Positions 1 to 63,279 of a DNA stretch of 64,000 nucleotides are shown in pieces. The notes beneath the pieces were generated by a model. The model did no database searches and was not told where the DNA came from. It saw only the letters and a list, made by a program, of their open reading frames with translations. A program made the position numbers and the translations under genes. Position 1 is the first letter of the stretch; every line of letters starts with the position of its first letter. The stretch lies in assembly GCA_963753345.1 (NCBI GenBank), contig CAVWBU010000021.1, positions 128,001-192,000 of the forward strand, given 5' to 3'. This DNA comes from an uncultured Fibrobacterota bacterium (lineage in GTDB: Bacteria; Fibrobacterota; Chitinivibrionia; Chitinivibrionales; FEN-1185).

Positions 1-25
1 TCCTCAACCTCTCAACTACTTCCTC

Positions 26-174
26 GTGGGTGCCGCCACAACAATGGATGGTCTTGCAACTACTTTTTCAAGGCGGCTACCCAGGAGGGGGTAGCGGAGG
101 ACCGGCGCGTTTCAACGCGAGTAAGGCATACGATGAGCGCGCCGGGCCGGAGCGAGGGGGATACTTCCCCCGCC
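26..174 (+). repeat. Repeat family A, copy 1 (structured intergenic repeat)
   Basis: GGGTGCCGCC...GGCGGCTACCC stem, then GAGGGGG, a variable hairpin and a terminal GGGGGATACTTCCCCC; same layout at 8 other sites. Confidence 0.85.
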
Positions 175-245
175 CAGACCATGTTTTTATCCTTGCACTG
201 CCTCCTCTGGATTTCATACCTCCGCCTCGTGTATTTTAAGCCTTC

Positions 246-1888: not shown

Positions 1889-2997
1889 GCCGCCCCGTTT
1901 ATCTCGCGGGCACCGGCGCATTTCTCCCGGGCGACCCCATTCCCTTCGACAGGATCGACGCAATGCTCGGGCCGCTTGACGCCGCCCCCGCGGGGGTTAA
2001 GAAGTGGTATGCGTCGCGAACGCCGGTGATGCGCGAGATCCTCGACGTTTCGTATGTGCATTACGCAATAGACCCTGTCACGCGCGAGTTTACCGAAGAC
2101 AACGTCACCATGGCGGTGAAGGCCGCGAGAAAAGCGCTTGACGCAGCGGGAATGGCGCCTGCGGACATCGACCTCATCTGCTACGGCAGCGCGCACCAGG
2201 ACCAGATGCCCACCGCGTCGGTGCGCATCCAGGAGGCGCTGGGCATTGACAGGTGCGACGAGCTGTCGATCCACGCCAACTGCACGTCGGCCTACAAGGC
2301 GCTGTACCTTGCGCACCAGCTTGTCGCGGGCGGAAAAAATAAAAACGCGCTCGTGCTGTCGTCGAATATCTCGTCGTCGGAATTGCGCGCCGAATACTAC
2401 AACCAGCCGCTTGTCGACAAGGAATCGCTGTTTCTGCGCTGGTTCCTCTGCGACGGCAGCGGCGCGGCCGTTGTCACCGCCGACCGTGCACGGTCGGCCG
2501 GATACGAGCTGGAATTCACCTTTATCGAATCGGTGGGCGGCAAACGACCGTCGCTCATGTACAACGAGCGTCCCGCACTGTGGCTCCCGCCCGACCGCGA
2601 GTTTGCCGAGGGCCGCCATCATCTGCGCCAGAAGTTCCGCAACGCGCTGTCGACTCCGGTGTTCCAGGAGAAGGACGGCTCGGTATTTTTCAACGGCCTC
2701 AAGCGGATGCTCGCGCGCGGAAACGTGCCCGTTGACAAAATAAAGTTGTTTCAGGTTAACATGCCCACGCGGCACATTATAGAATCCATCATGGACGAAT
2801 GCGTGAGCATCGGCATTAAACGCGAGGCGCTGTATTCGAGGCTCCGCGACCTCGGGTATTGCGGCCCGCCCATGGTGTTTATCTGTCTTGATGAAATAAT
2901 AAAGAACGAGCACATTGACAAAGGGGATAGAATCGTAAGTTTTGTGACAGAGGTCAGCAAGTTTATGCAGGCAGGATATTCAATAGTAAAAAATTAG
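1885..2997 (+). CDS. KAS III-type ketosynthase, StlD/DarB-like
   Basis: ATGA overlap with the fabF stop; HANCTS Cys motif; FLRWFLCDGSGA and VTEVSKF resemble DarB-type motifs. Confidence 0.7.
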   Translation: MSRPVYLAGTGAFLPGDPIPFDRIDAMLGPLDAAPAGVKKWYASRTPVMREILDVSYVHYAIDPVTREFTEDNVTMAVKAARKALDAAGMAPADIDLICYGSAHQDQMPTASVRIQEALGIDRCDELSIHANCTSAYKALYLAHQLVAGGKNKNALVLSSNISSSELRAEYYNQPLVDKESLFLRWFLCDGSGAAVVTADRARSAGYELEFTFIESVGGKRPSLMYNERPALWLPPDREFAEGRHHLRQKFRNALSTPVFQEKDGSVFFNGLKRMLARGNVPVDKIKLFQVNMPTRHIIESIMDECVSIGIKREALYSRLRDLGYCGPPMVFICLDEIIKNEHIDKGDRIVSFVTEVSKFMQAGYSIVKN

Positions 2998-3014
2998 TTC
3001 TTAGAAAATATTTT

Positions 3015-3165
3015 GGTGGGGGAAGTATCCCCCTGGGGTGCCATGTCGAGACTCAAGGTCATGATTTAAATCTGATGTCTCGACATTGGCACCCACACCC
3101 CCTCCTGGGTGCACCCCAAGAGAGGGTAGCTGCAAGAATCAAGCACCTGTGTGGGGGCACCCGCG
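3015..3165 (-). repeat. Repeat family A, copy 2
   Basis: Reverse complement reads GGGTGCCCCCA...TGGGGTGCACCCAGGAGGGGG-TGTGGGTGCCAATGTCGAGAC...GTCTCGACATGGCACCCCA-GGGGGATACTTCCCCC. Confidence 0.85.
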
Positions 3166-3439: not shown

Positions 3440-3488
3440 CGACCGTTTGGCGCCAAAAGGTAATTGACTTAAAAGAATCCTTCCGCCG

Positions 3489-3648
3489 CGCGTTAGGTGG
3501 ACCGGAGGGTGAGCTGGAGCGAATTGCCGGCCGACCCGGCCGTCAGGCATAGGGCGGTCCGGCAACGAGGCGAACAGCCGAGCCCGCAGGGAGACCGACC
3601 CCATGGAGAGCCGCACGGCAGTGCGGCTCTCCATGGGGGAACGCCCAA
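3489..3648 (-). repeat. Repeat family B, copy 1
   Basis: Reverse complement reads TTGGGCGTTCCCC[hairpin]GGGTCGG...CCTCCGGTCCACCTAACGCG. Confidence 0.85.
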
Positions 3649-8920: not shown

Positions 8921-9243
8921 TTGGGCGTTCCCCCCTGAAGAGCCGCACTGCCGAGCGGCTCTTCAGGGGGGTCGGTTCCACCCCTCCGGGTGCTTCGAGG
9001 CGTCGTCCTTCCGGTCCACCCCTTCGGGTGCTTCTCCCTCGTCAGGGATTTCCAAGGGTCACAAGGGTCGTCGGCCTTCGGCCTCGGGCCATCTAATTGC
9101 AGAATGTAGATTGTAGAATGTAGATTTGAAATGCGAAGACCAACCGGAATGTTTTTTCAATCTACAATCATCAATCTAAAATCTACAATTAAGAGTCCGG
9201 GCGGCATCCCGCTTTGGCGGGACCTCCAGTCGCCCCTAACGCG
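8921..9243 (+). repeat. Repeat family B, copy 2 (expanded by an internal heptamer hairpin)
   Basis: TTGGGCGTTCCCC...GGGTCGG...CCTCCAGTCGCCCCTAACGCG, with GTAGATT/AATCTAC arrays at 9096-9190. Confidence 0.85.
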
Positions 9244-9397
9244 AAAGTCAAAAAACGGAAAACTGACAAAAGGTAATTAAAAATTGGGAACAGGGTGTGG
9301 ATGGATTTATTTTGATCAGTAAGGCAATGCTTTAGTAAAAACCGCTCGCGCCTGGCGTTTGAAGATGGATGCTTATCATATCAAATAGGATCCGTTC

Positions 9398-12574: not shown

Positions 12575-12680
12575 GATTGCTTCGCGGAGTTTATCCCGAG
12601 CTCTGTCGAGGGGCTCGCAGTGACACTTTTCTCTCTTCAATCCGCATTCCGCAATCCCAGCCCTGAGCTTTGTCGAAGGG
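12575..12680. repeat. REP-like mosaic (GATTGCTTCG...CTCGCAGTGAC with two CCYGAGC..GTCGA.GG hairpins)
   Basis: CCCGAGCTCTGTCGAGGG at 12595 and CCCTGAGCTTTGTCGAAGGG at 12661; related motifs at 26292-26326 and inside B copy 6. Confidence 0.55.
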
Positions 12681-12700
12681 ATCAATCCACAATTCTCTCT

Positions 12701-12842
12701 TGGTGCCCCCGCAGCAGAAGTTTCTTTCTTGCAGACCAACTTGCTTGGGGGCTACCCAGAGGGGGCAGCGCAGGACCGGCGCGGAATAACGTGAACTTTG
12801 AAAATATGAGCGACGGGCCGAAGCGAGGGGGAGACTTCCCCC
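12701..12842 (+). repeat. Repeat family A, copy 3
   Basis: GGTGCCCCC...GGGGGCTACCCAGAGGGGG...AGCGAGGGGGAGACTTCCCCC. Confidence 0.85.
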
Positions 12843-12896
12843 TGTAAATGATATTGATTTTGGAGAATGTTAAATGAAAGAGGATTGATTTTAAGG

Positions 12897-17599: not shown

Positions 17600-17776
17600 C
17601 TGGGCGTTACCCCGCCTCGCGCTTCGGCGTGAGGCGGGGTCGGTCTTCTTCCGGGCTCGGCTGTTCGTCTCGTTGCCGGTCCGCCCTATGCCTTGCGGCC
17701 GGGCACCCCGTCGGGTGCTTCCAAGGGTCGTCGGCCGGCAATGCGCTCCACCGCACTTACCGTCGCCCCTAACGCG
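17600..17776 (+). repeat. Repeat family B, copy 3
   Basis: TGGGCGTTACCCC[hairpin]GGGGTCGG...GTCGCCCCTAACGCG. Confidence 0.85.
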
Positions 17777-17965
17777 GCGGCAGACAATTGCTACTGGCAT
17801 TTTTTCGTGGCGCCGACGATACTCTCGATTCAGGAAGAGATCAATGGATTCTTCTTTGGGTATCCTGAGTGTTGAGAATCAGAATTCAGGATTCGGCAAA
17901 TTACAGATGGATATATTTTGGGCGTCTCCAAGATCGATGAGAGATTTCATTACTTTCAACTTGAT

Positions 17966-18492: not shown

Positions 18493-18635
18493 TTGGGCGT
18501 TCCCCTCTCTTCGCTCGGGTCGGTTCTCCTTCCGGTCTCGGCCTTCGGCCTCCGGCCGCCTCGGCCCTAGGCCGCTGTAGCGGCGGGTCCAGGCGGCACC
18601 GCGCTCCAGCGCGGCCTCCAGTCGCCCCTAACGCG
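18493..18635 (+). repeat. Repeat family B, copy 4
   Basis: TTGGGCGTTCCCC...GGGTCGG...CCTCCAGTCGCCCCTAACGCG. Confidence 0.85.
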
Positions 18636-18792
18636 CAGCAGAGGAATTCTATTCAGTCAAGTTATATCTATGCGCCAACCCAAGTTTCTATTGAGATTGT
18701 TTAGATTTTCTTCTTGAACTACTCAGCTCCTCCACTTTTCAACTCTTCAACGATTCAACTTCTCAACTTCTCAACATCTCAACTCTATTTCT

Positions 18793-18942
18793 CGGTGCCC
18801 CCGCAGCCGAAGATTCTTTCTTGCAAATCAACTCTCTAGGGGGCTACCCACGAGGGGGTGTGGGTGCCAATGTCGAGACGTTGGATTTTTGGCATTGGTT
18901 TTGAGTCTCGACATGGCACCCCAGGGGGACCCTTCCCCCACC
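18793..18942 (+). repeat. Repeat family A, copy 4
   Basis: Same GTCGAGAC/GTCTCGAC middle-hairpin subtype as copy 2. Confidence 0.85.
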
Positions 18943-18945
18943 AAA

Positions 18946-28420: not shown

Positions 28421-28590
28421 TTGGGCGTTCCCCTCGCTGCACTCGGGTCGGTCCACCCCTTCGGGTGCTTCCAAGGGTCGTCCCTCCGGTCTCGGGCTCG
28501 CCCTCGGGCCGCCTCGGCCCCTATGCCGGCGTACCGGCGGGGTCCGGGCGGCATCCCGCCATAGCGGGACCTCCGGTCGCCCCTAACGCG
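28421..28590 (+). repeat. Repeat family B, copy 5
   Basis: TTGGGCGTTCCCC...GGGTCGG...CCTCCGGTCGCCCCTAACGCG. Confidence 0.85.
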
Positions 28591-28691
28591 CGGCAGAGGA
28601 AGTCTTATCAGTCAACTACTTTATCTTGCGCCAATTGGTATCCGGAAATCGGGGCTTCTTCAATATGTTTTCTACTTTTCAACTGCTCCTC

Positions 28692-28837
28692 GTGGGTGCC
28701 GCCACAACAATGCATAGTCTTGCAGCTGCTTTATCAAGGCGGCTACCCTAGAGGGGGTAGCGCAAGACCGGCGCGGAATGCGGTGAACTTTGATGATGTG
28801 AGCGCCGGGCCGCAGCGAGGGGGAACCTTCCCCCGCC
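28692..28837 (+). repeat. Repeat family A, copy 5
   Basis: Close to copy 1, including the GCCGCC/GGCGGC stem variant. Confidence 0.85.
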
Positions 28838-28928
28838 TAAATCATTGCTTTATGACTTTTGTCGAAATATCACCCTGGCGATAATCGAAAACTCAAGAAT
28901 AGAGGAAGATGGTGATGAAGGGTGGCCA

Positions 28929-31393: not shown

Positions 31394-31407
31394 AGACAAG
31401 ACAGAAT

Positions 31408-31561
31408 TTGGGCGTTCCCCTCCCCCTCGACTTCGCTCGGGGTCGGGTCGGCCCTCCTTCCGGTCTCGGCCTTCGGCCTCGGGCTGCCACGGCCGTATGC
31501 CGCTTCGCGGCCGGTCCGGGCAGCACCGTGCTCTAGCACGGCCTCCAGTCCTGCCTAACGC
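31408..31561 (+). repeat. Repeat family B, copy 6
   Basis: TTGGGCGTTCCCC...GGGTCGG...CCTCCAGTCCTGCCTAACGC. Confidence 0.85.
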
Positions 31562-31662
31562 AGCGCATGCGGGATTCTTATCAATCAAATATTTCTTCTC
31601 ACGCCAAACTGCATTCGCAGACATCAGCCAAGATTACTTTCTTTGCTTTTCAACTACTCTAC

Positions 31663-31814
31663 GTGGGTGCCCCCCAACCGAAGCAACTTTCTTGCAAATC
31701 AACTTCCTTGGGGGCCACCCAAGAGGGGGTAGCGGAGGACCGGTCGCGCACCTCCGGGATACTTGTTTGTAAAGCGGCGCGGCCGGGCCGCAGCGAGGGG
31801 GAGTCTTCCCCCGC
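31663..31814 (+). repeat. Repeat family A, copy 6
   Basis: GGGTGCCCCCC...GGGGGCCACCCAAGAGGGGG...GCGAGGGGGAGTCTTCCCCC. Confidence 0.85.
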
Positions 31815-31904
31815 ATGAATGCTTTTCTTATTGCATCTGATAAAACCTATTTTATCAACGCATACACACATATTCGCATTCACGCATTCACCTCGGAGTT
31901 CCAC

Positions 31905-32432: not shown

Positions 32433-32434
32433 CC

Positions 32435-32953: not shown

Positions 32954-33005
32954 TGTATTCCCGCGTCCTGCGAAAGTATTTTTGCACATGAGCGAAAAAT
33001 AATCG

Positions 33006-33506
33006 ATGTTCCCCGGTGAAAGGAAGCGGGCGGTCGTGGACAAGCTGGCATTGATGAACGCGGCGTTTCAGGAGGCCGTGAAGGCGCTTGACGAAGGCGA
33101 GGTGCCGGTCGGCGCCGTGGTGGCGAAGGACGGCAGGATCGTCGGCCGCGGCTACAACCGGGTGGAAAAGCTGTTTGATGCAACGGCGCACGCCGAGGTG
33201 GTGGCGATCGGGGCGGCGTCGGCCCAGCTCGCAACATGGCGCTTGTCCGGCTGCACGCTCTACGTTACGCTCGAACCCTGCATCATGTGCCTCGGCGCCC
33301 TGATGCAGGCGCGCATCGACGCCATTGTCTTCGGCGCGGCGGATCCGCGGCTGGGCGCCGTCGACACGCATCTCTACCGGAACGAACTCGAGCGCGCCTA
33401 CCGCTATTTCCCGGCCATAACGCGCGGGGTGATGCGGGAGGAATGCGGCCGGCTGCTCACGGGATTTTTTGCGAACGTCCGCGCAAACGGTACAAAGGAA
33501 CCATAA
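33006..33506 (+). CDS. tadA: tRNA adenosine deaminase
   Basis: EVPVGAVV, TAHAE, TLEPCIMC. Confidence 0.9.
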   Translation: MFPGERKRAVVDKLALMNAAFQEAVKALDEGEVPVGAVVAKDGRIVGRGYNRVEKLFDATAHAEVVAIGAASAQLATWRLSGCTLYVTLEPCIMCLGALMQARIDAIVFGAADPRLGAVDTHLYRNELERAYRYFPAITRGVMREECGRLLTGFFANVRANGTKEP

Positions 33507-34791: not shown

Positions 34792-34792
34792 C

Positions 34793-35623
34793 GTGGAGCA
34801 ACGGTTTACCTTGTCTGATCGGCTGACCGCAGGAGAATGCCTCCTCATTGTCGGCTTGACGGGCGCGCTTGTCACCTGCGCGCTGTGCGCGGTCGCGAGC
34901 CTCCGGAATGGAAGCGCCGCCGAATTTTCCGCGTACGCGCGGCTCAGCGTGTACCTCGCCGTCACCGCGCTCATGTGCGTGTTGCTGCGGATAACGTTGA
35001 CAAAAGAGATGCGGCAGACGCAGTATATGGTTTCCGACGATTCAATTGCGCATATTCGCCCCCAGCGCATCGTGACCATTCCGCTCGAAGATGTCGAGCG
35101 TCTCAGGTACATCCGCACGCCGTTGTTCTTCAACTTCGGGCTCCTTTCATCCTCAGGCGGCGCGATCCGTATCTCGTTCCGGACCCACGACCACGCCGGC
35201 CTCATCGCTTTGCTCAAGAGCCGCTTTGACGCCGGAGGCAGGTCCGGCGTTTACAAAGAAAAGGAAATCGAACGGTATCTTCGGGACGCCCGGTCCGCCG
35301 AACAGGCCGACGCGCGAGTCCGGAGATTTCTTCCGGGCCTTTGCGGCGCAGTCGCGCTTGCCTGCGCGGCAAACACCGTGACCGCACTATACCTGTGGTG
35401 GTTTCCCGTGTTTCTGTCGCTTCTGTGGTCGGTGTTCGGGCTTCTCATGTTTGTCAACGCGGTGCGCTATGCCGAATATATTCTGGGACGCACAAGCGGC
35501 CGCACGGCCGTTTCGCCCGACGCCCCCCGCAGCGCCGCCGCCGCATATGTCATGTCGGGCTCGGCCGTTTTCACCCTGTATCTGATCTGCGGGATCGCCC
35601 TCAAAGCCGCTTTTTTCCGGTAG
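34793..35623 (+). CDS. Hypothetical membrane protein
   Basis: Several hydrophobic segments; fills the operon between neighbours. Confidence 0.6.
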   Translation: MEQRFTLSDRLTAGECLLIVGLTGALVTCALCAVASLRNGSAAEFSAYARLSVYLAVTALMCVLLRITLTKEMRQTQYMVSDDSIAHIRPQRIVTIPLEDVERLRYIRTPLFFNFGLLSSSGGAIRISFRTHDHAGLIALLKSRFDAGGRSGVYKEKEIERYLRDARSAEQADARVRRFLPGLCGAVALACAANTVTALYLWWFPVFLSLLWSVFGLLMFVNAVRYAEYILGRTSGRTAVSPDAPRSAAAAYVMSGSAVFTLYLICGIALKAAFFR

Positions 35624-35636
35624 CAATGACTGCCCT

Positions 35637-36653
35637 ATGAGCCTTCGCCCGCTTCACCTCAGGAACCTCGTGATTGCGCCGCCGCTGCTGTGCGGCCCCA
35701 TGGCGGGCGTATCGCACAGTGCGTTCCGCAGGCTCGTGGCCGATTTCGGCGGCCATGGCGCGCTGTTCACCGAAATGCTGCCCGGCAAAGCCTTGCTCAA
35801 TGAGAACGTCGGCGCGACACCCTTTACAAAGAGGCGGCCCGAGGAGGGGATTGTTTGGTACCAGCTCGCGCTGAACGGGAGCGAGGACATCCCCGCGGTT
35901 ATCGACAGGCTGGGCGCGGTGCGGCCGGCGGCAATCGACCTCAACTGCGGATGTCCGGCGCCGGAAATGGAGCGCCAGGGCATCGGCGCCTCGCTGTTCG
36001 AAGACGAGGCGCGTTTTGCGGCCGTGCTCGGCGCGCTGCGGAAGGCATGGCCCGGTGTGCTGTCTGTCAAGTGCCGGCTGTGGAAGACCGGAAACGGATG
36101 GCAGCCGGAATTTCTGAAAAGACTTCGCATCATGGAACATGCGGGCGTCGACCTGCTCATCGTGCATCCGAGGTTCTTCGGCGAGAAACTCAAGCGCAGG
36201 GCGCGGTGGAATCTGTTCGAATGGATTTCGTCGCAGACTGCGCTGCCGATTGTCGCCAACGGCGACATCGGATTCGCGTCCGACATCGAGCAGCATGCGC
36301 AGGCGTTCACACCTGTCGCCGGACTCATGATCGCAAGGCAAGCGGTGGTGCGGCCGTGGATATTCCGCGAATTCTCCGCGCGATTCTTCGGCGGACCGGC
36401 AGTCGGCCCCGTCGACTATGCCGGGGTGTGGAAGAAGTACTACGATTTTGTCAAGGAAGATTTTGCTCCGGAACGGGCCATCGGCAGGCTCAAGGAGTTT
36501 ACAAAATACTATGCATGCAACTTCTTCTTCGGGCATCTTCTGAGGAGCGCGGTCCAAAATGCGCAATCACTGGATGAGGTGCATGAGGCGGCCGTGAAGT
36601 TCTTGTCTGCAAATCCAAAGACCGTGGAGCGGCCGGCGGTTGCGGGAGTCTAG
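35637..36653 (+). CDS. dus: tRNA-dihydrouridine synthase family protein
   Basis: GPMAGVS, IDLNCGCP, VHPR, ANGDI. Confidence 0.88.
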   Translation: MSLRPLHLRNLVIAPPLLCGPMAGVSHSAFRRLVADFGGHGALFTEMLPGKALLNENVGATPFTKRRPEEGIVWYQLALNGSEDIPAVIDRLGAVRPAAIDLNCGCPAPEMERQGIGASLFEDEARFAAVLGALRKAWPGVLSVKCRLWKTGNGWQPEFLKRLRIMEHAGVDLLIVHPRFFGEKLKRRARWNLFEWISSQTALPIVANGDIGFASDIEQHAQAFTPVAGLMIARQAVVRPWIFREFSARFFGGPAVGPVDYAGVWKKYYDFVKEDFAPERAIGRLKEFTKYYACNFFFGHLLRSAVQNAQSLDEVHEAAVKFLSANPKTVERPAVAGV

Positions 36654-36752
36654 AGGAATTGTAGATTGCAGAATGTAGAATGTAGAATAAACAAACCATC
36701 AAACGTCCTTTCTGTTCTCTTTCAATCCCCAATCCGCATTCCGAAATGTCAT

Positions 36753-38609
36753 TTATTCGCCCGCCAGATGGACAAACGGCAGAACGGTTTGCGTTGTCTG
36801 GTTTCGCAATTGCAGGATATAACGTCCCGAGCAAATGTTCCTGTCTGCCAGATTGATGGTGACTGAGCGAAGGTTTGGCCCGGATTCGCCGCTGTAAACG
36901 ATCCTTCCGCGTATGTCGAAAATACGGATCTCATTGATGCCCTGCTGCAGATTGGCAAGGACAATCGAACCGCGGATCTTGCTGAGCATCGGCTTTCCCG
37001 GTATCTCTTTTCCGGCCAATTTCCGCGAAACGGCGTTTCCCGGCCCGGCGCCGACCGTTATCGCCGCCCTGCCGTCAACGGAATCGTTCCAGACATAGAC
37101 AATGGCTTTTTGCGCGGCCAGAGGCGCTTGCGGAAGAGGAACATCCACACTGTGCTGAAAAACGCCGGACTGCATTGCAATGGTGCTGTCAAAAGAAAAT
37201 CCCATGTTATATTGCCCGGAAAACGCCGGTACGGAATCGCGAACCGTAAAGCTCACCGAGTAGCTGATGTGCGAGGTACTGTCGCCGGGGACGGTGATTC
37301 TTACCGCAGTGGGTGCGGAGTCGGGAACTGCCGCAGCACTTACGTTGATAGTGCCATAGGTTGCCCGCAAAGCAGGATCGCCGAGAAAGAAATATGTTTG
37401 GTTGTTGTAGCTTGGTGCAATCGATTTCGCCTTTGCGAGGAGCGCTCCAAGACTTGCGCCGGGGTTTTGTTTGAGTTGCGAAAAGAATGCCCTTCCTAAC
37501 CATTCATTATCGGAGGCGTATGTTTCACTCGCACTTCCGATATACGCAATGGCGCCCCCTTGGGGCATGAAAAGAAATTTCTGGCTCATGGGCACGGGAA
37601 CGGCACTAAAAATTGAGCCATTTCTTGATGTAAAGGCAACAAGAACGAATGGCATTGAATCGTTGGTGAAGAGATTGGTATTGTCGCTGTTCAGGACGTT
37701 TCCACAGCCTAATTGTTGGTCACTCCCATAGACGGAAAAGAATGCCAATGCGACACCTTGATTGATTGTCGCTATGATTGCAGCAGTTGCCAATGGTTGC
37801 TCGTAAAACTCATCAAACGGATATGCGGAGAGATACCGTTTCCTCACCAAATATCCTTGGAGCGAGCTGTCCACTACTATTTCGTCTGCTTCCTGGAAAA
37901 CCGATCCAAGCGGACTTGGGTTGGCCCCTAGCATTGCATTGTCGGCAATGGCCATCATGCTATTGCGCCAAGCGCCTTTCGGCCGGGAAAGGTCGAACCT
38001 CTTGACTTTTTCAACATACAGGCTGCAAAGCTCCGGAGTTTGCGTCGGTATTCGGCCGATGCAGAACCCGGTATCGTTGATTCCGGACCAATTATCGGCG
38101 GCGGTCGGAGTTGCGTAAGACAACCTTGTGTAACAGTCATCGGATACGGCTACGGGACAGTCTTGGCCCTGGTAGTTCATGTCTGGCGCCAAGTTTCCCA
38201 GCGCGTACCATGTAGGCATCAAGCCGTCGCTATACATGATCGAATCGGTACCAATTTCAAAAGCATCTGTACCGATAAGAACAAGATATTTGAACGACAT
38301 CCGCCAATTTTGCTTTGCCCATTTGAGCGCATTCCACAGCGCAACGTTACGGTGATTGTAATCCGTTCCAGGAAAAGCCGTTATAATATCTTCTAGAAAC
38401 GCTACCTTTGCCTGTTCAACATCGTCGTTCTTGAATGCATTTCTGTGCTGAGCCAGCATGACCGCCGGCGTTTGGAATGCAACAGGAGCGACAATCAGAT
38501 AGTCGCAGGAAATGGTCGGGTCTTTGAACGTGGTAATGACTTCATTGTCGGCAAAGGCGATTGCTGCAAGGCTTGCAATTATCGCAATAATGAGGATGGC
38601 GGGTTTCAT
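36753..38609 (-). CDS. Secreted C25 (gingipain/PorU-like) peptidase homologue with T9SS-like C-terminal domain
   Basis: DYLIVAP, YLVLIG, SDD.Y, IGRIP, GGAIAYIG, LGDPAL; C-terminal IFDIRGRIV...GRYIL. Confidence 0.75.
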   Translation of the reverse strand: MKPAILIIAIIASLAAIAFADNEVITTFKDPTISCDYLIVAPVAFQTPAVMLAQHRNAFKNDDVEQAKVAFLEDIITAFPGTDYNHRNVALWNALKWAKQNWRMSFKYLVLIGTDAFEIGTDSIMYSDGLMPTWYALGNLAPDMNYQGQDCPVAVSDDCYTRLSYATPTAADNWSGINDTGFCIGRIPTQTPELCSLYVEKVKRFDLSRPKGAWRNSMMAIADNAMLGANPSPLGSVFQEADEIVVDSSLQGYLVRKRYLSAYPFDEFYEQPLATAAIIATINQGVALAFFSVYGSDQQLGCGNVLNSDNTNLFTNDSMPFVLVAFTSRNGSIFSAVPVPMSQKFLFMPQGGAIAYIGSASETYASDNEWLGRAFFSQLKQNPGASLGALLAKAKSIAPSYNNQTYFFLGDPALRATYGTINVSAAAVPDSAPTAVRITVPGDSTSHISYSVSFTVRDSVPAFSGQYNMGFSFDSTIAMQSGVFQHSVDVPLPQAPLAAQKAIVYVWNDSVDGRAAITVGAGPGNAVSRKLAGKEIPGKPMLSKIRGSIVLANLQQGINEIRIFDIRGRIVYSGESGPNLRSVTINLADRNICSGRYILQLRNQTTQTVLPFVHLAGE

Positions 38610-38666: not shown

Positions 38667-40151
38667 TCATTGAATAACGTCGATCTCTGTATTTCGCATT
38701 CTGAAAACGCCTTCGTTGGTGCCGATCCACAGCGTGTTCTCGCCGTCGACCGCCAGAGCCGAGATCCAGGGATTAACCATGCCCTGTTCCGGTTTTGACC
38801 ATTGCGAGTTACAGTACAGATAAAGCCCGTTGGCGGTGCCTACATACAATGAATCTCCTTGGGTAACGGCCAGGCTTGTTACTGCGGCGCTCATCGAGCT
38901 GTCGGCGGGCATTATCCGCGTGGCGTTCGTGTCATCCCATGCAAACAGGCCCTGATTGGTTCCAATCCACACCCTGCCGCCTTCGCCTTTTGCGAGCGCG
39001 GAAACGGCATTCTGCCTGAGGCTGGACGATTCATGCCACTTAGCGGCGCTGTCTCTGAAGTACAGGCCGTGCTGTGTTCCGGCCATTACCATCCCCTTAA
39101 GGCAGATGATGGCGGAAATCGAGGTGAGCTGATTCTGCGGGTCGGCCGTGCCTATCGATGTGATGGCATCGGTTGATGAAACAGGGGTGACCGCTACGCC
39201 GTCAAAAAAGAATAGCCCTTGCGGCGTTCCGATCCACAGATTTCCCGCGGAGTCTGCCGCGAGCGCGGTGATGTTCATCATGGAAGGATTGCTCTGGAGA
39301 ATCATGCCTTCCGTGAGGCTGTCGTTCCTGACTCTTGCAAGCCGCAGCGACGTGCCGATCCACGCGGCGCCCTTCGAATCGATTGCCATGCAATTTATCC
39401 GGCTGCTTGACAAACCGTCAAAGAGGCCGTAGGTGCGCCAGTTCCCGTTGCGCAGGCTGGCGAGTCCGTTTACCGTGCCGATCCACACGCCAAACGAATC
39501 GCACGCAAGGGACGTTACGGAGGTGCTGACAAGAAGGAACGGGTTGCGAAGCGTGTCGGCCCGTCCTTCCATCACGTTCACGGCAAGCGCAATATCGAAG
39601 TAACCGCTCGATTGGGTCACCACCTTCGCAAGGTAGGTTCCGGGCGCGAGATTCGGCAGGCTAAAGGCGCCGTTGACCGAGTTGACCTGGGCGTAAACGC
39701 GGCTTCCCTGAAGGACGACAAAAGCATATTCCAGGCTTTTTCCCGAGGAATAGAGCGCAGTGCCCGTCACCGAGCCGGTTTTTTTGAGCGAAATTGTTGA
39801 AATCGTGTCGCCTGGCTTGCCGGTTATGGAAACGGAATCGACATAGGCCTTGTTCGCCCCGCTGTCGCAGAACAGGTTGTACCGCCCCCCGGTTACGTTG
39901 ACAAAACAGTATTTCCCCATACTGTCGGTCTGCTCACTGCAGATCATGAACGGCCCCTGCGGCGGTTCAAGCTCGTTGTAATCGACGGGCACCAGCGTGA
40001 CGCGCGCGCCCCGGACCGGTTTTCCGCTCAGGCCCAGAACCGCTCCCGAAGTCCCGTTGCCGGTCTCCGTGCCCGACAGCATGGGCGCGGTGCCGCAGGA
40101 GAGCAACAATGCGGCACATAGAAGCAACCATGATGATTTGAACATCGTCAT
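38667..40151 (-). CDS. Lipoprotein with carboxypeptidase-regulatory-like domains and beta-propeller repeats
   Basis: LLLSC lipobox, GTETGN, repeated LWIGT.xGL blades. Confidence 0.75.
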   Translation of the reverse strand: MTMFKSSWLLLCAALLLSCGTAPMLSGTETGNGTSGAVLGLSGKPVRGARVTLVPVDYNELEPPQGPFMICSEQTDSMGKYCFVNVTGGRYNLFCDSGANKAYVDSVSITGKPGDTISTISLKKTGSVTGTALYSSGKSLEYAFVVLQGSRVYAQVNSVNGAFSLPNLAPGTYLAKVVTQSSGYFDIALAVNVMEGRADTLRNPFLLVSTSVTSLACDSFGVWIGTVNGLASLRNGNWRTYGLFDGLSSSRINCMAIDSKGAAWIGTSLRLARVRNDSLTEGMILQSNPSMMNITALAADSAGNLWIGTPQGLFFFDGVAVTPVSSTDAITSIGTADPQNQLTSISAIICLKGMVMAGTQHGLYFRDSAAKWHESSSLRQNAVSALAKGEGGRVWIGTNQGLFAWDDTNATRIMPADSSMSAAVTSLAVTQGDSLYVGTANGLYLYCNSQWSKPEQGMVNPWISALAVDGENTLWIGTNEGVFRMRNTEIDVIQ

Positions 40152-40978
40152 GAGCGAGGCCCCTGCGTCGACTTGCTCAATGGGAATATCTGAAAATTCA
40201 CCTGATACACCTTGTCGCAGCCGGCGTCCATGTTCTCCACCTCCAGAATCTCCTTTCTGAGCGCGCGGATCTTTTCCTTGATGAGCGCAAGCCCTTGCGG
40301 CGAGAGATTCACCGTGAGGGTGGATATGTCGCGCACCCCGGCCGGGAACCTTTCAATCGCCTCGCCTGCGAGCGCGATTGTTGACTTCTGGTAGTTCGCT
40401 ATGGCTATGGACCGCCAGTCTTCCCCGGTCGTAACGAACTTGTCCGTCGGTCTATAGCAGCCTTTTTGGTCCTTCCGTATCAGGCCGAGCCGGAAAAGCA
40501 GGGCAATGGCGGTTCTTGCTTCTTTTGGCGACAGGGGCGGTTCGCACATCCCCGCCAGTTGTTCGTAGTTGCCGCAGAACCGGTAATGGCTGAGCAGTTC
40601 CCGTATGGCAATGTATTTCCATGATTCGAACAGCGCATAGCGGTCGGCGAGCAGGGTAAGAACTTCGGACTTGTTGAACGAAACCGCTTTTTCGAAATAC
40701 AGTTTCTTTTCCTGCTCGCTGCGGGCCTGGTCGAGATTCACCAGCAGGCCGAAGTATGCGGTTTCCCGCTTGCCAAGCTTGAACACCGCCGCAACCGGCG
40801 CGACCATCTTCTGGGTGAGATTCCGTTTCCCCTGGAGAATGCGGACAAAGGTGCTGGCGTTGATCCCCAGCCGCCGGGCGACAAACCGGTAGGAGAAAGC
40901 GGGACTCGCCGCTTTCCGTGCTTTGTAAGCGTCCTTTAGGAATTCCCGGAACGAAAGGTAAGTGAATATCGAGATCAT
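40148..40978 (-). CDS. TIGR02147-family HTH protein (DUF4423)
   Basis: IFTYLSFREFLKD, FSYR..A..LG, GKRNL, W.YIAIREL, RDISTLT, VYQVNFQIFP. Confidence 0.85.
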   Translation of the reverse strand: MISIFTYLSFREFLKDAYKARKAASPAFSYRFVARRLGINASTFVRILQGKRNLTQKMVAPVAAVFKLGKRETAYFGLLVNLDQARSEQEKKLYFEKAVSFNKSEVLTLLADRYALFESWKYIAIRELLSHYRFCGNYEQLAGMCEPPLSPKEARTAIALLFRLGLIRKDQKGCYRPTDKFVTTGEDWRSIAIANYQKSTIALAGEAIERFPAGVRDISTLTVNLSPQGLALIKEKIRALRKEILEVENMDAGCDKVYQVNFQIFPLSKSTQGPRS

Positions 40979-41177: not shown

Positions 41178-41303
41178 GTCGCGGAGCCCGGAAATATGAG
41201 AGGAATTGTATATTCTAGACTGTAGATTGCGGATTGAAAACCGTCCACGTTCTTCGCATTTGTCTTACAATCTCAAAACCATTGTGGCAATGTTCTTCTG
41301 CCC

Positions 41304-41441
41304 AGCGCCAGGCAGGACTGGAGGCCGCGCTGAAGCGCGGTGCCGCCTGACCACGGCCCGAAGGGCCCTCGTGGTAGGCGGCCCGAGGCCGAAGGCCGAG
41401 ACCGGAAGGACGGCCGCCGCCGTCTTCGGCGGGGCGCCCAG
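41304..41441 (-). repeat. Repeat family B, copy 7 (compensatory variant)
   Basis: Reverse complement reads TGGGCGCCCC...CCTTCCGGTCTCGGCCTTCGGCCTCGGG...CCTCCAGTCCTGCCTGGCGC. Confidence 0.8.
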
Positions 41442-41520
41442 ATTTTTCTTCATTTTTTCTCTTCATATCACTTTGTCCAACATCCTCCTCCCTTGTCTTG
41501 ACGAAAACTATTTTCTCCAC

Positions 41521-42115: not shown

Positions 42116-44803
42116 ATGTCACGACACGAGACCTCCGTCAAATTTCTTGAGTCCAGGCTCAACGAGAACCCGCAGTCGCTCGTTTTCTCCCGTCTTGCCG
42201 ACGGCATCCGCGAAAGCGGAGATATCCAGCAGGCGATCTCGGTGTGCATGGATGGCCTCGCCCGTCACCCGGACTGTCTCACGGGCAGGGTGGTTCTGGG
42301 ACGGTGCTACCTGGAGCAGGAAAACCTCAAGGAGGCTGCCGCCGAGTTCGTGGCGGTGCTCAAACTTGACAGACGCAATCACACCGCGATCAAGATGATC
42401 GCCGACATCTGCGCGCGCCAGGGACTCAAGGAAAAGGCCGGGGATCTCTACGCGAGCCTGCTCGGCATGGACCCGGACAACCAGTCGCTCGTCGAGCTTG
42501 CCAGCACGTTCCGCGGAACAGGCGATACCGACCTTTTCAGCATCCTTGGCATGTCATCCGTCGCCGGCAGGGTGGCCGTTGCGCCTGCGCCGGCGGCCGA
42601 CGACACGATTGCCGACGCCGACAGGACCATAGAGTTTGACGTGGAACCGAGCCGGGCCGCGGCTTCCGCAGGGGAGGATACCGAGGTCGGCGAAATGATG
42701 GCAAAGACGCAGCAGTTCGATCCGAAGGATCTCGGTGTGGCCGACAGGGCTCATGATGACACGGTGCTGACTTCAGACGTGCTCACCGGAGACGATGTGA
42801 GCTCGCGCATGGAGACGATGTTCGACATCGGCCCGGAAACCCCGCCTGCCGCAGCGCCGGAAGTGCACGAGCACATTGAGCTCGGAAGCGGTGATGAAAC
42901 CCTGGGCCCCGCCGACGATGCGGCCGCAGGAACGGTCAGGGGCGAAGAAGCGGGGGTCGTGTCGGGAAGCGACATCACCTCGCGCATCGAGCAGCTGTTC
43001 GGCGAAGAGACGCCGGTGTCTCCGCCTGAACCGACTGTTGCCGAGGCCCCAACCAGGGAAGTTGCGCGCGACGAGTTACGGCCCGTGGAGTCTTCGGCGC
43101 TTTCCGGAGAAGACATCACCTCGCGGCTCAACGAAATGTTCGAGGGCGAGCCTGCCATCGAACCTTTGGCGGAAGACACGCTGATGGAAAAACCGGTCTT
43201 GCCGGCCGACACCAAGGTTGGACCGCTTCTTGAGATCGAGGCAGAGGCGCCGGCCGGGACCGTCACGGGCGCTACGGAGGAGATTGTCCTGGGGCCGCGG
43301 GAGCCGGCGCGGCATCCCGCCGAGGAAACCGTGCTTTCCGGCGACGACGTGGCGCTGAGGCTCGATACGATATTTGACGAAGGGGAAGAAGCCGGGCCGC
43401 CCGCAAACGAAGCGGTCGCGACGCAGTCTGCGGAGGCGACCGATTTATCCACAGCCGACGGCGACAAGACACAGACCGCCGAGACGTTCCGCGCGGGAGA
43501 GGACACGAAGCCGCCGTTTGACATAGAGGAAGCCGGCGTTGTCGTCGACGAGGTGGGCTTTGACGCCGCGTCCGAGACGCTGGTGGTCGAGGAGGCGGGA
43601 AAGTCCTCTCAGGCTGCTGCTCCGCAGGAGCCGCCCGAGGCTCCCGATGCCCCCATCATCATCGACGACGCAGTTGTGGCCGAGGAGGAGCAGGAGTCTG
43701 AGTCCGGCATGTCCGGAGACGACGTGGTTGGACGCATGGAGGAGATATTCACCGAGGAGCCTGGTTCGGGAGGAACTGCCGCGCCGGCAGCACCTGCAAA
43801 GGAAGAAGCGGCAATGCATCTTGACTTTATCCCGGTGACCGAAGAGGAAGCCGGGACGGCCGGAGAGCCCAGTACTGCGCCGACCGATGTTGACAAAACA
43901 GATATCGCGGCCCCGGAATCGGACACGCTTGACCTTTCGGGCGAGACGGAGGAGCGGACGATTCTCATGGACGAGGACAGCGGCGCGGAGACAATGCCGG
44001 CCGAAGAGGAAACCATGGTGACCGGAGGGGAAGATGAGACCATGGTGGCCAGAACCGAAGCCGAGACCCTTCCTTCCGAGGCCGAGGCTGAAACCATGCC
44101 TGCCGAAGCTGAGGCTGAGACCATATCGGCCGGAGGGGAAGATGAGACCATGGTGGCCAGAACCGAAGCTGAGACCCTTCCTTCCGAGGCCGAGGCTGAA
44201 ACCATGCCTGCCGAAACTGAAGCTGAGACAATGTCGGCCGGAGCCGAAGCTGAGACTATGGCCGTTGAGGACGAAGCTGAGACCATGGTTTGGTCCCGTT
44301 CGGACCCGTTTCTGGATTCCCCGTTCCGCACCGGCTCGAAAACAGGAACTGGCGCACCGAAGGAAACGGAAAGCGTTACTCCGCGGGATTCTGAACAGGA
44401 CATTTTTACGGATCAGGAAAAAGGGGCGGGCGCGGAGTCGGATCAGGCCTTTTCCATTCCCGACCACGTGCTCACGCCGACCCTCGCCGACATCTATTAT
44501 CAGCAGGGGCAGCCCCGGCTCGCGCTGCAGATTTTCCGGCGGCTCCTTGACGCGGACCCGGACAACGAACGCATTGCGAAACGCATCAGGGAAATAGAGG
44601 CCGGCCTCAACGCCGACATCGAGCCGGCAGGTGTCGAGGAAACCGTGGTGACGACGCCCACCCCCAAGGGGGACGTGAAGCCGCCCGCCCAAAGGGTAAA
44701 ACCGAAGGTTGACAAAAAGAAAAAGGCGGCCGCTGCGGAAAAACCGCTTTCCGGCGTGCGCATCAGGAAGAAAGCCAAGACCAGGCGCAGGAAGACGAGG
44801 TGA
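42116..44803 (+). CDS. Large acidic protein with N- and C-terminal TPRs and internal repeats
   Basis: TPR-like N-terminus, E/D/T/A-rich linker, TPTLADIYYQQG TPR, basic tail. Confidence 0.75.
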   Translation: MSRHETSVKFLESRLNENPQSLVFSRLADGIRESGDIQQAISVCMDGLARHPDCLTGRVVLGRCYLEQENLKEAAAEFVAVLKLDRRNHTAIKMIADICARQGLKEKAGDLYASLLGMDPDNQSLVELASTFRGTGDTDLFSILGMSSVAGRVAVAPAPAADDTIADADRTIEFDVEPSRAAASAGEDTEVGEMMAKTQQFDPKDLGVADRAHDDTVLTSDVLTGDDVSSRMETMFDIGPETPPAAAPEVHEHIELGSGDETLGPADDAAAGTVRGEEAGVVSGSDITSRIEQLFGEETPVSPPEPTVAEAPTREVARDELRPVESSALSGEDITSRLNEMFEGEPAIEPLAEDTLMEKPVLPADTKVGPLLEIEAEAPAGTVTGATEEIVLGPREPARHPAEETVLSGDDVALRLDTIFDEGEEAGPPANEAVATQSAEATDLSTADGDKTQTAETFRAGEDTKPPFDIEEAGVVVDEVGFDAASETLVVEEAGKSSQAAAPQEPPEAPDAPIIIDDAVVAEEEQESESGMSGDDVVGRMEEIFTEEPGSGGTAAPAAPAKEEAAMHLDFIPVTEEEAGTAGEPSTAPTDVDKTDIAAPESDTLDLSGETEERTILMDEDSGAETMPAEEETMVTGGEDETMVARTEAETLPSEAEAETMPAEAEAETISAGGEDETMVARTEAETLPSEAEAETMPAETEAETMSAGAEAETMAVEDEAETMVWSRSDPFLDSPFRTGSKTGTGAPKETESVTPRDSEQDIFTDQEKGAGAESDQAFSIPDHVLTPTLADIYYQQGQPRLALQIFRRLLDADPDNERIAKRIREIEAGLNADIEPAGVEETVVTTPTPKGDVKPPAQRVKPKVDKKKKAAAAEKPLSGVRIRKKAKTRRRKTR
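44022..44237 (+). repeat. Intragenic tandem duplication, 2 x 108 bp built from 27-bp units
   Basis: CCGGAGGGGAAGATGAGACCATGGTGGCCAGAACC... at 44022 and 44130. Confidence 0.9.
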
Positions 44804-47040: not shown

Positions 47041-47150
47041 AAAGAAATGTAGATTGCAGATTGTGGAATGTAGATTGAAAAACTTTCCGACGGGGCCGTC
47101 GGAACGATACTTTGACAAAATGTGATTCCGATATGAAAAGGAGACAGTAC

Positions 47151-49686: not shown

Positions 49687-49744
49687 CCATTGGTCTGTGC
49701 TTATCGCAATTGTAAAGTAGCCAGTGCATTTACCGCCACTCTCC

Positions 49745-49873
49745 GTGGGTGCCCCCACACAGGTGCCTGTTTCTGCAGCTGCTTCCACTTGGGGTGCACC
49801 CAGGAGGGGGTAGCGGAGGACACCGCAGGCCGAAGGCCGAGGAGGCCGCAGCGAGGGGGAAACTTCCCCCACC
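49745..49873 (+). repeat. Repeat family A, copy 7
   Basis: GGGTGCCCCCA...TGGGGTGCACCCAGGAGGGGG...GCGAGGGGGAAACTTCCCCC. Confidence 0.85.
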
Positions 49874-49883
49874 TGAACTCTTT

Positions 49884-56454: not shown

Positions 56455-56486
56455 GATCAGATTATCCTTGTGAGAGAAAAGCGTTT

Positions 56487-56618
56487 GGTGGGGGAAGTGT
56501 CCCCCTGGCCCCAAGCCTCCTCGTCCCGCGGGACTGCGGGGTCTTGGGGCACACCCCCTCGTGGGTAGCCCCCTAGTAAGTTGATTTGCGAGAAAGAACC
56601 ACTTGCTGGGGGGCACCG
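56487..56618 (-). repeat. Repeat family A, copy 8
   Basis: Reverse complement reads GGTGCCCCCC...GGGGGCTACCCACGAGGGGG-TGTGCCCCAAG...CTTGGGGCCA-GGGGGACACTTCCCCC. Confidence 0.85.
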
Positions 56619-56700
56619 AGAAAGAGAGTTGGAAGTTGACAGTTGAACGTTGAAGGCTGGCGCAAGAAAAAACAGTTGACCGAATAGATTTCTCATGCCG

Positions 56701-56838
56701 CGCGTTAGGTGGACCGGAGGGTGAGCCAGAGCGAATTGCCGGCCGACCCTCGCCGCAGGCGACTGGGGCGGTCCGGCAACGAGGCCGAACGGCCGAGCCC
56801 GCGGGGAGACCGACCCCGCAAAGCGGGGGAACGCCCAA
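56701..56838 (-). repeat. Repeat family B, copy 8
   Basis: Close to B copy 1 (CTCACCCTCCGGTCCACCTAACGCG subtype). Confidence 0.85.
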
Positions 56839-62610: not shown

Positions 62611-63042
62611 ATGCAATCTTCCAGAAGAAAATCGCGCGAACTTGCCCTGCAGACGCTGTACGCATGCGACGTCGGCGACACGGTTGACTTCCGCAAGGTG
62701 CTCGCCGGCATCGTTGAGGACCAGAGCGGTCTTGACGGCGCGGACGAGTACGCCGCCGGGCTCGTGGAAAAAACGCTGCTGTACCGAAACGAGATCGACG
62801 CGCTGCTGAGCTCGCATGCCGCAAACTGGGACCTCAAACGCATGACCGCCATCGACCGCAACATCCTGCGCATGGCCGTGGCCGAGCTCAGGTCGACCCC
62901 CGACGTGCCGTTCAAAGTGGTGATCGACGAGGCGGTGGAGCTCGCCAAGAGGTACGGGACCGATGATTCCGGCAAGTTTGTGAACGGCGTGATAGATTCG
63001 ATTAGAAAAGAATTGCCGGCGGATAAGAGCGAGAGCATATAG
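62611..63042 (+). CDS. nusB: Transcription antitermination factor NusB
   Basis: RRKSRELALQ, DRNILRMA, IDEAVELAKRY, FVNGV.D. Confidence 0.95.
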   Translation: MQSSRRKSRELALQTLYACDVGDTVDFRKVLAGIVEDQSGLDGADEYAAGLVEKTLLYRNEIDALLSSHAANWDLKRMTAIDRNILRMAVAELRSTPDVPFKVVIDEAVELAKRYGTDDSGKFVNGVIDSIRKELPADKSESI

Positions 63043-63060
63043 TAGTTAAAAAATGTTCAA

Positions 63061-63210
63061 GTGGGGGAAGTTTCCCCCTCGCTCCGGCCCGGCGTGCTTC
63101 ACAAGCAATCATTCCACTATTCTTCGCACGCCGGTCCTCCGCTACCCCCTCCTGGGTAGCCCCCTTGACAAAGTAGTTGCTGAACCATACGCCCGTGTGG
63201 GGGCACCCAC
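63061..63210 (-). repeat. Repeat family A, copy 9
   Basis: Reverse complement reads GGGTGCCCCCA...GGGGGCTACCCAGGAGGGGGTAGCGGAGGACC...AGCGAGGGGGAAACTTCCCCC. Confidence 0.85.
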
Positions 63211-63279
63211 GAAGAACAGTTGTAAGTTGACAGTTGGTGGTTGACGGTGACAGGAACGCCCAAGTCATTTTAAAGCTAC

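Follow-up and report, generated by a model that had tools for sequence, protein, structure and literature searches.

An elaborately folded intergenic repeat of a Fibrobacterota genome, probably of a REP/BIME-like kind

Family B copies in the window

We analyzed a 64-kb stretch of DNA (the window) from the genome of an uncultured Fibrobacterota bacterium of peat and focused on one copy of an intergenic repeat, designated family B. Its neighbors are two divergently oriented genes, a DUF4423 gene (40148 to 40978, minus strand) and a cytidylyltransferase-like gene starting at 41521. This copy, c7, consists of 138 non-coding bases with a G+C content of 78% and contains the entire folded core of the repeat. 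Reading of the sequence revealed eight copies in the window (c1 to c8) with shared ends, as the initial annotation had already recognized. The end motif GGGCGYYNCCC matches nine times in the window (1.56 expected) and the end motif CCTAACGC eight times (1.60 expected), and none of 100 shuffles reached nine or eight matches, respectively. The ends of c7 on the minus strand are GCGCC (5′) and GGCGC (3′), whereas those of the other seven copies are GCGTT and AACGC. The positions of all copies, of the helices of c7, and of a second repeat, family A, are given in Table 1.

Table 1. Positions of family B copies, of the structural parts of c7, and of family A copies in the window
Feature	Position	Strand	Basis or remark
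Family B copy c1	3488..3647	-	reading; cmsearch 91.0 bits
Family B copy c2, 323 nt	8922..9244	+	reading
Family B copy c3	17601..17777	+	reading; cmsearch 51.3 bits
Family B copy c4	18494..18636	+	reading; cmsearch 97.6 bits
Family B copy c5	28422..28591	+	reading; cmsearch match 28462-28591, 67.3 bits
Family B copy c6	31409..31563	+	reading; cmsearch 104.8 bits
Family B copy c7, entire folded core	about 41303..41440	-	cmsearch model R1 121.1 bits, E 1.1e-20, model positions 1-140
Family B copy c8	56700..56837	-	reading; cmsearch 102.3 bits
c7, P1 closing stem, 5′ arm (GCGCC)	41433..41437	-	partner 41305-41309; A2 columns 4-8 x 164-168, 99.6% of cells paired
c7, P1 closing stem, 3′ arm (GGCGC)	41305..41309	-	genome-wide end table
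c7, P2 variable hairpin, 6 bp + 4-nt loop	41417..41432	-	double changes at 6 of 7 P2 pairs in 131 copies
c7, 5′ strands of long-range helices P3, P3b, P3c, toward junction	41401..41415	-	partner 41311-41325
c7, 3′ strands of P3, P3b, P3c	41311..41325	-	helix alignments
c7, P4 hairpin (GGCC, TTC triloop, GGCC)	41387..41397	-	helix 6; loop type counted
c7, long arm P5-P6-P7 (8 + 4 + 5 pairs)	41340..41384	-	helices 7-9
c7, P8 hairpin, 5 bp + 4-nt loop	41326..41339	-	helix 10
Family A downstream of c1	about 2990..3133	-	second module of B-A composite
Family A downstream of c4	about 18768..18945	+	second module of B-A composite
Family A downstream of c5	about 28687..28860	+	second module of B-A composite
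Family A downstream of c6	about 31639..31835	+	second module of B-A composite
Family A downstream of c8	about 56460..56656	-	second module of B-A composite
Other family A copy	1..190	+	
Other family A copy	12676..12861	+	
Other family A copy	49740..49883	+	
Other family A copy	63040..63247	-	

Genome-wide copy number and subfamilies

An HMM was built from seven of the eight window copies and used for an nhmmer search (E < 1e-3) of the 4,516,072-base genome (G000). Copy c2 was omitted from the HMM, and also from the alignment A2 described below, because of its length. The search yielded 394 matches on both strands of 55 contigs, a number that is slightly inflated since the assembly seems to contain duplicated stretches, and the family comprises about 390 copies. 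While the initial annotation was right about eight copies in the window, the element is thus a repeat of some 390 copies and not an eight-copy RNA motif. Full-length matches (260 of 394) measure 132 to 226 nt with a median of 154 nt, in line with the annotated variation in length of the peripheral hairpins. A further 97 matches begin at HMM positions 20 to 39 because their 5′ part belongs to another type. Family B copies with identical flanks were observed on two to three contigs (C29/C30, C38/C42/C19, C4/C16, C5/C16, C54/C32, C7/C24, C11/C41, and C44/C46).

The 379 matches that reach the 3′ end include 365 distinct copies, and the ends of the closing stem were readable in 362 of the 379. GCGTT/AACGC was found 226 times, GCGCC/GGCGC 87 times, GCGTT/GGCGC 16 times, and GCGCC/AACGC once, with 32 rarer combinations. 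Inspection of the 16 GCGTT/GGCGC cases identified 13 as GCGCC copies located behind a truncated GGGCGTT stub and three as true mixtures, so that closing stems are truly mixed in about four copies. With the counts corrected for these stubs, c7 belongs to a GCGCC/GGCGC subfamily of about 100 members, which differs from the other copies at many linked positions. The change from GCGTT/AACGC to GCGCC/GGCGC, which had been described as two compensatory pairs of this copy, is therefore present but not particular to c7. Family B as a whole is made up of a few frame haplotypes.

Fold and covariation

A first alignment (A1; seven window copies, RNAalifold) was poorly aligned in its 5′ part and was set aside. 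For alignment A2, 55 short copies (131 to 143 nt) from the window and 20 genome regions were aligned with MAFFT; RNAalifold gave the long-range helices, and the structure was completed by hand. The resulting fold has 46 pairs in 10 helices and consists of a closing stem (P1), a variable side hairpin (P2), the short long-range helices P3, P3b, and P3c, and a four-way junction, the arms of which are hairpin P4, the long arm P5-P6-P7, and hairpin P8. Base pairs are formed in 88.6% of the cells of A2 compared to 77.0% after shuffling (reached by 0 of 500 shuffles) and 32 to 47% with slid partners. Double changes occur at 28 of the 46 pairs, and one measure, further pair types, was not above the shuffles (109 of 500 reach the observed value).

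A covariance model built from this fold (R1) found 131 copies in 462,899 bases of G000. In the R1 alignment (A3), 90.8% of the cells pair versus 76.5% after shuffling (0 of 500) and 34 to 47% with slid partners, although these figures overstate independence because the alignment was fitted to R1 and the copies share ancestry. Double changes were found at 35 of the 46 pairs, and all five measures lay above every shuffle. P3b and P3c are paired in 97.3% and 96.7% of cells, respectively, with double changes at all five of their pairs. The weakest helix genome-wide is P3 (79.7% of cells paired), the third pair of which is C-G in 50, U-A in 13, and G-C in 4 of 121 copies and unpaired in 54. In the window, P3 reads GGT/ACC in c1 and c8 and GGC/GCC in c6 and c7, exactly as annotated; the annotation left c3, c4, and c5 unmentioned, in which the third pair is unformed because GGT stands opposite CCC.

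Linkage within subfamilies accounts for much of the covariation. Unpaired columns match paired ones in mutual information (0.99 for columns 8 and 12), and the independent compensatory events are therefore far fewer than the copies. A nearest-neighbor test on 93 copy pairs (median 8% apart) is less exposed to this haplotype linkage. Such neighbors differ by 6.9% at paired columns versus 12.1% at unpaired columns and show 109 double changes from one Watson-Crick pair to another, besides single changes that produce a mismatch (150) or a G-U pair (53). Nearly half of the double changes (53 of 109) are isolated single-pair swaps, again less exposed to linkage, and these occur in 9 of the 10 helices. 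In addition, the two arms of P1, which lie ~130 nt apart, are matched in 313 of 362 copies despite the reshuffling of interior modules. As base pairing is kept through sequence change, selection appears to act on the single-stranded fold, which agrees with the earlier proposal of a conserved multi-hairpin structure selected as RNA or single-stranded DNA.

Single parts of the fold can be exchanged. Copy c2 carries two extra X-type hairpins, and in c2 and in a copy at L015:8728-8968 the P5-P7 arm is swapped for an AT-rich hairpin of heptamer repeats. In both cases, two inverted TGTAGA-type runs form this long hairpin in the place of P5-P7. The optional module X, a hairpin of ~29 nt, was observed at varying positions of family B (window 8974-9034, 17699-17741, and 28449-28491), namely after P3c, inside the P6 arm, or in tandem, and looks as if it had been inserted or exchanged by itself.

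Hairpin loops and the folded strand

A loop census was taken for the 365 distinct copies, folded with Watson-Crick pairs only. Of 496 triloops on the B strand, 308 are C-TNC-G and 8 are C-GNA-G, while the 542 tetraloops include 4 C-UUCG-G and 3 GNRA loops. The CTTCGG strings that had been annotated as UUCG-type loops do exist, but in register they form TTC triloops closed by C-G. The middle base of the C-TNC-G loops varies (TTC, 188; TGC, 69; TCC, 33; TAC, 18), and positions 1 and 3 are kept. On the complementary strand, TNC triloops become GNA triloops (e.g., C-GAA-G). Family A, read on the same strand as B, has 44 C-GNA-G loops and no C-TNC-G loop; on each strand, the module of the composite nearest to the 3′ end is the GNA-capped one. 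Published work ascribes very high stability to C-G-closed GNA triloops in DNA and considerably lower stability to their RNA counterparts (PMC13037366, PMC3201870), and GNA mini-hairpins are part of signals in single-stranded DNA, among them the G4 origin, ssiA, and the N4 promoters (PMC13037366).

The evidence on which strand takes the folded form is mixed. Nonstandard cells of the 131-copy alignment comprise 176 G-T, 63 A-C, 226 C-T/T-C, and 122 G-A/A-G combinations. Most of the G-T cells (112 of 176) stand at three subfamily-fixed helix-end positions, where G-T pairs on the B strand correspond to A-C on the other strand, and elsewhere 64 G-T face 63 A-C cells. Internal loops of 1x1 type on the B strand contain G-T in 47 and A-C in 30 cases, and T-C/C-T in 77 versus G-A/A-G in 7. 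Both strands of c7 fold equally well, with predicted energies of -79.9 and -80.7 kcal/mol as RNA and -45.8 and -47.0 kcal/mol as DNA. Relative to the local GC skew, the B strand is overall the C-rich one in 155 versus 104 cases, which is a mild bias; in convergent and divergent gaps, the ratio is 73 to 46 (p = 0.017).

Genomic context and the B-A composite

Our own crude gene calls gave 3,079 genes, a coding share of about 73 to 77% of G000, and 3,024 intergenic gaps (476 convergent, 468 divergent, and 2,080 tandem). By these calls, none of the 394 family B matches lies inside a gene. They are found in convergent gaps (115), divergent gaps (67), tandem gaps in co-oriented (72) or antisense (124) direction, and at contig ends (16); convergent gaps are thus enriched, with 115 of 378 two-neighbor copies versus 476 of 3,024 gaps. 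For the 127 copies with a co-oriented upstream gene, the median distance between its stop codon and the 5′ end of B is 23 nt.

The other structured repeat, family A, measures ~180 nt, terminates in a G5-loop-C5 hairpin, and has 291 nhmmer matches in the genome. A same-strand copy of A follows within 800 nt downstream of B in 199 of 394 cases, at a median gap of 119 nt; A in opposite orientation was found downstream of B in none of the 394 cases, and A upstream of B in eight. The composite has the order B, a conserved tail of ~45 nt, a spacer, and A. The 3′ end of A faces the 3′ end of a gene in 161 versus 76 cases and stands a median of 9 nt from the facing stop codon. In total, 381 of the 3,079 gene 3′ ends (~12%) have a B or A copy within 150 nt, compared to 214 of the 3,079 gene 5′ ends.

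Among 341 copies, the conserved flanks of B consist of an A-rich leader of ~20 nt before and the tail of ~45 nt after the element, and no conserved promoter was detected ahead of the copies. Because of the A-rich leader, a T-rich run follows B on the other strand, beginning ~7 nt past the closing stem. Across 15.5 kb of the window, no enrichment of canonical hairpin-plus-T terminators was seen (25 versus 19.8 ± 4.5 in shuffled sequences). About 31 of the 394 copies are preceded by a recurrent leader of ~40 nt in which half of an A-type terminal hairpin is joined to the 5′ end of B (e.g., G000 C15:118526, C16:58049, and C31:117765). This half-A leader may mark a recurrent rearrangement junction.

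Turnover and distribution among relatives

The nearest relatives of a protein encoded in the window come from metagenome genomes labeled Fibrobacteres/Fibrobacterota and Chitinivibrionales, at 76 to 55% identity. DNA searches found family B in four of the five other genomes of the genus, and no family B among the genomes searched from two sister genera. The covariance model R1 matched 11 of 41 related genomes, including the four of the genus and six from other families of the order. The forms in these other families are shorter (100 to 117 nt) and keep the helices with other sequences.

For comparison with a sister species (G001), the coding DNA of which is ~90% identical to that of G000, 22 stretches of G001 were chosen for holding B, which biases the sample; 20 of them had at least two synteny anchors and gave 43 gaps for comparison. 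In these 43 gaps, B was present in both genomes in nine cases, in G001 only in four, and in G000 only in four. Where copies occupied the same site, the partner was not the best match in 9 of 10 cases, with identities of 0.35 to 0.74 versus 0.84 to 0.97 for a copy elsewhere. Two composites are clearly inverted in place between the two genomes; a third inversion is a script flag only. At the site of c7, G001 has a GCGTT/AACGC copy with a different arm type as well as an A copy.

The cases of presence and absence concern whole composites. At the four presence/absence sites, neither a clean empty site nor a target duplication was seen; as the flanks differ there too, insertion is inferred rather than seen. 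Contigs from four DNA runs covering window positions 17000-36999 break at the repeats, where the depth rises ~20-fold. No clean excision or empty site was recovered from these population contigs because the listed joints have short sides (19 to 43 nt) inside the repeats. Among the 11 public runs listed as containing window positions 27000-36999, none is an RNA run.

Comparison with known elements and candidate enzymes

At gathering scores, an Rfam scan of the window returned two tRNAs and an SRP RNA only, and no B copy scored at or above the gathering threshold of an Rfam family. Permissive scans of 41250-41500 and 28350-28900 to E = 10 gave nothing above 18 bits and no Flavo-1. The best scores on c7 were 5 to 16 bits, compared to gathering scores of 34 to 88, and included a twister-sister match (12.9 bits, E 5.3). 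Flavo-1 and family B are both GC-rich hairpin motifs from the Fibrobacterota-Chlorobiota-Bacteroidota group. However, the resemblance to Flavo-1 suggested by the initial annotation did not hold up: the Flavo-1 model (RF01705; 76 positions, gathering score of 42 bits) had no genome match at E ≤ 1, with 150 of 456 candidates scored, and family B is twice as long and present in about 390 copies.

No match to Y1/RAYT (PF01797) was found in G000, which is 94% complete; as a control, the search was positive in 6 of 14 genomes. TnpB (PF07282) likewise had no match in G000 and was positive in 8 of 14 genomes, and reverse transcriptase (PF00078), absent from the matches in G000, is present in two of the six genomes of the genus. 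Y1 occurs in three of these six (G002, G004, and G005), yet G000 and G001 hold family B without Y1. Within 1.5 kb of the Y1 and reverse transcriptase genes of the genus (seven loci), R1 gave no match at E ≤ 1. Six identical Y1 transposase reading frames of 144 amino acids were observed in G002 (L069, L072, and four more places), away from B copies, and these are probably an active IS200-like element. A search for B elements split around a cargo gave one pair of half-matches on contig C6, 3.9 kb apart, which encloses no recombinase but three ordinary-looking genes, one for a beta-helix protein and two without a Pfam match.

Family B was also compared with other known element classes. A TnpB guide RNA scaffold derived from IS200/IS605 is contradicted by the lack of PF07282 and PF01797 matches in the genome, and a retroelement-borne repeat by the lack of PF00078 matches in G000. 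Integron attC sites have the order RYYYAAC ... GTTRRRY on a strand and form arrays of same-direction cassettes. An attC reading of family B was rejected because the box order is reversed (both B strands run GTT ... AAC); in addition, the copies are dispersed on both strands. MITEs of DDE transposons have terminal inverted repeats and a target-site duplication; the inverted ends of B are limited to the 5-bp P1 stem, and no duplication was seen at four presence/absence sites, the flanks of which have diverged as well.

REPs are short palindromes of about 20 to 40 nt, and REPINs consist of two inverted REPs. Family B has the high copy number and the extragenic location of such elements, but membership in the REP/REPIN-RAYT class was rejected since there is no cognate Y1 in G000 and the unit is not a short palindrome. 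REP/BIME elements and the REPINs with RAYT transposases, known from enterobacteria and pseudomonads (PMC3116915, PMC3337134), resemble family B in having hundreds of extragenic, palindromic copies that fold when single-stranded, in their position next to gene ends, in their subfamilies and mosaics with other modules, and in their persistence in lineages. Family B differs from them by its length of 132 to 226 nt, its 10 helices, and its four-way junction, in a genome without Y1. We therefore regard it as similar in kind to REP/BIME but not as a member, because it is not a short palindrome and has no linked RAYT.

ERIC, BOX, Correia/NEMIS, bcr1, and RPE are longer structured or modular intergenic repeats. 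As generally described, they are similar to family B in their length of 100 to 200 nt, stable predicted folds, non-coding nature, optional modules, and co-location with gene ends. In elements of the Correia type, the terminal inverted repeats are clear and the target is duplicated, in contrast to the 5-bp closing stem of B, for which no duplication was seen. To our knowledge, a fixed pairing with an unrelated second module, capped on the opposite strand, is a feature of none of these repeats.

The phage G4 origin, ssiA of RSF1010, and the phage N4 early promoters share with family B hairpins capped by C-GNA-G on one defined strand, and the complementary strand of P4 holds CCGAAGG, the same heptamer as in ssiA (PMC13037366). 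These signals are single phage or plasmid sites recognized by a primase or polymerase (PMC13037366), whereas family B has hundreds of chromosomal copies in a much larger fold. A literature search found no publication on intergenic repeats of Fibrobacterota, and none on repeats among the listed papers for Chitinivibrio-type names.

Interpretation

We consider it probable, at roughly 0.6, that family B is an uncatalogued, REP/BIME-like, non-coding mobile or recombining repeat, the fold of which is selected in single-stranded form. It is an interspersed repeat confined to gene gaps and usually the first module of a fixed B-A unit. The predicted single-stranded fold has P1 as its closing stem, the variable P2 at its side, and a four-way junction from which three arms extend. 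As the species diverged, intergenic sites have gained or lost copies, and copies at a given site have been turned around or supplanted by others of the family, which is how a non-autonomous element that moves or recombines would behave. The fold would persist because variants unable to form it fail to spread or are not tolerated. The hairpin caps may point to the complement of the GGGCG...CGC strand as the folded one, as DNA rather than RNA. Accounting for the turnover between species by mobility, with a single-stranded DNA form and an enzyme that acts on B, is what we infer from these observations, in which no transposase is linked to the copies.

An alternative that we regard as possible but unlikely is a cis-acting RNA. 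The B-A composite would be transcribed by read-through and serve as a two-way 3′-end structure (terminator, insulator, or exonuclease protection), similar to REP and BIME elements acting at enterobacterial 3′ ends; selection would favor the fold in the RNA, and its spread would be secondary. This would explain why both composite ends abut stop codons (medians of 23 nt for the 5′ end of B and 9 nt for the 3′ end of A), why B or A stands at 381 of 3,079 gene 3′ ends versus 214 of 3,079 5′ ends, and why convergent gaps are enriched (115 of 378 copies versus 476 of 3,024 gaps). The GNA-capped module being last on each strand and the T-rich run that the A-rich leader provides after B on the other strand would also fit. 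Such a run ~7 nt past the closing stem, however, is too distant for a canonical intrinsic terminator, and the orientation relative to genes is not fixed, with 72 co-oriented versus 124 antisense tandem copies and 67 in divergent gaps, including c7. Furthermore, the caps are GNA triloops and not the GNRA or UUCG loops usual in structured RNA (3 and 4 of 542 tetraloops), and one subtype gives way to another at the same site, which means that no site-specific RNA is conserved. This replacement at orthologous sites, together with ~390 copies in either orientation and with swapped arms, is also a misfit for a trans-acting RNA gene. That family B represents independent small RNA genes or ribozymes, perhaps self-cleaving and of an expanded Flavo-1-like type, is thus highly improbable, even though an elaborate conserved fold with covariation and the shorter forms of 100 to 117 nt in other families of the order would be expected of them; the copies have no conserved promoter ahead of them, Flavo-1 is absent at E ≤ 1, and the Rfam scores on c7 (5 to 16 bits) stay far below 34 to 88.

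The covariation itself could be explained without selection on the fold if a palindromic founder had spread recently and haplotype inheritance plus whole-hairpin swaps had produced the linked changes. Under this assumption, unpaired columns should covary like paired ones, as they do (mutual information of 0.99 for columns 8 and 12), and the further pair types of the 55-copy alignment, which did not exceed the shuffles (109 of 500 reach the value), as well as the equal G-T (64) and A-C (63) cells outside the three subfamily-fixed positions, speak for it too. What makes this explanation improbable is the behavior of close copies, in which changes are about half as frequent at paired as at unpaired columns (6.9% versus 12.1%) and 53 isolated single-pair swaps are spread over 9 of the 10 helices. 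The P1 arms, ~130 nt apart, remain matched in 313 of 362 copies despite module reshuffling, the triloops are constant at positions 1 and 3 but not at the middle base, and the helices persist with different sequences in the distant forms from other families.

Within the preferred reading of family B as a REP/BIME-like repeat, a more specific and rather doubtful version is that B and A form the two ends of a non-coding unit of ~450 nt that is handled as single-stranded DNA and copied, inverted, or exchanged between intergenic sites by an enzyme encoded elsewhere, other than Y1/RAYT, TnpB, or reverse transcriptase. If true, the B-A unit would be a new kind of fold-dependent mobile DNA; it might alternatively be a chromosomal set of ssiA-like single-strand initiation signals. 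Hundreds of long repeats are rarely tolerated by bacterial genomes, and here B and A together are present at ~12% of gene 3′ ends. For an interspersed repeat, B is unusually elaborate in its ten helices, four-way junction, and swappable arms; no transposase is linked to it, and its strand-specific loop signature differs from that of the A module. If the folded form is DNA, family B would represent a novel example of DNA mobility or replication signaling that depends on structure; if it is RNA, it would provide lineage-wide 3′-end structures in a phylum with almost unstudied gene-expression signals. The family also breaks short-read assemblies of peat and sediment bacteria and deserves a curated model.

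Other repeats and features of the window

AT-rich heptamer runs of the TGTAGA type were observed at window positions 9094-9132, 21778-21816, 22486-22524, 36656-36694, 41203-41241, and 47044-47082. One of these runs lies 60 nt past the 3′ end of c7 on the lower-coordinate side, and its motif is conserved at the corresponding site of G001. Heptamer runs of the GTTGA/TCAAC type stand beside family A at 56607-56656, 62454-62503, and 63198-63247. At C32:76747-76840 of G000, a GTTGA/TCAAC inverted-repeat hairpin is located at a site that lacks the B-A composite in G000 and is filled in G001.

Two further repeats are located in coding sequence. A tandem repeat with a period of 27 nt and at least eight units (44000-44296) lies inside the gene for an 895-amino-acid TPR protein (42116-44803). 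Five direct repeats spaced ~360 to 380 nt apart (24107-25655) lie in minus-strand coding sequence and are probably repeated protein domains. The two tRNA genes and the small SRP RNA, which are the sole Rfam matches in the window, were located at 12900-13059 and 22380-22478.
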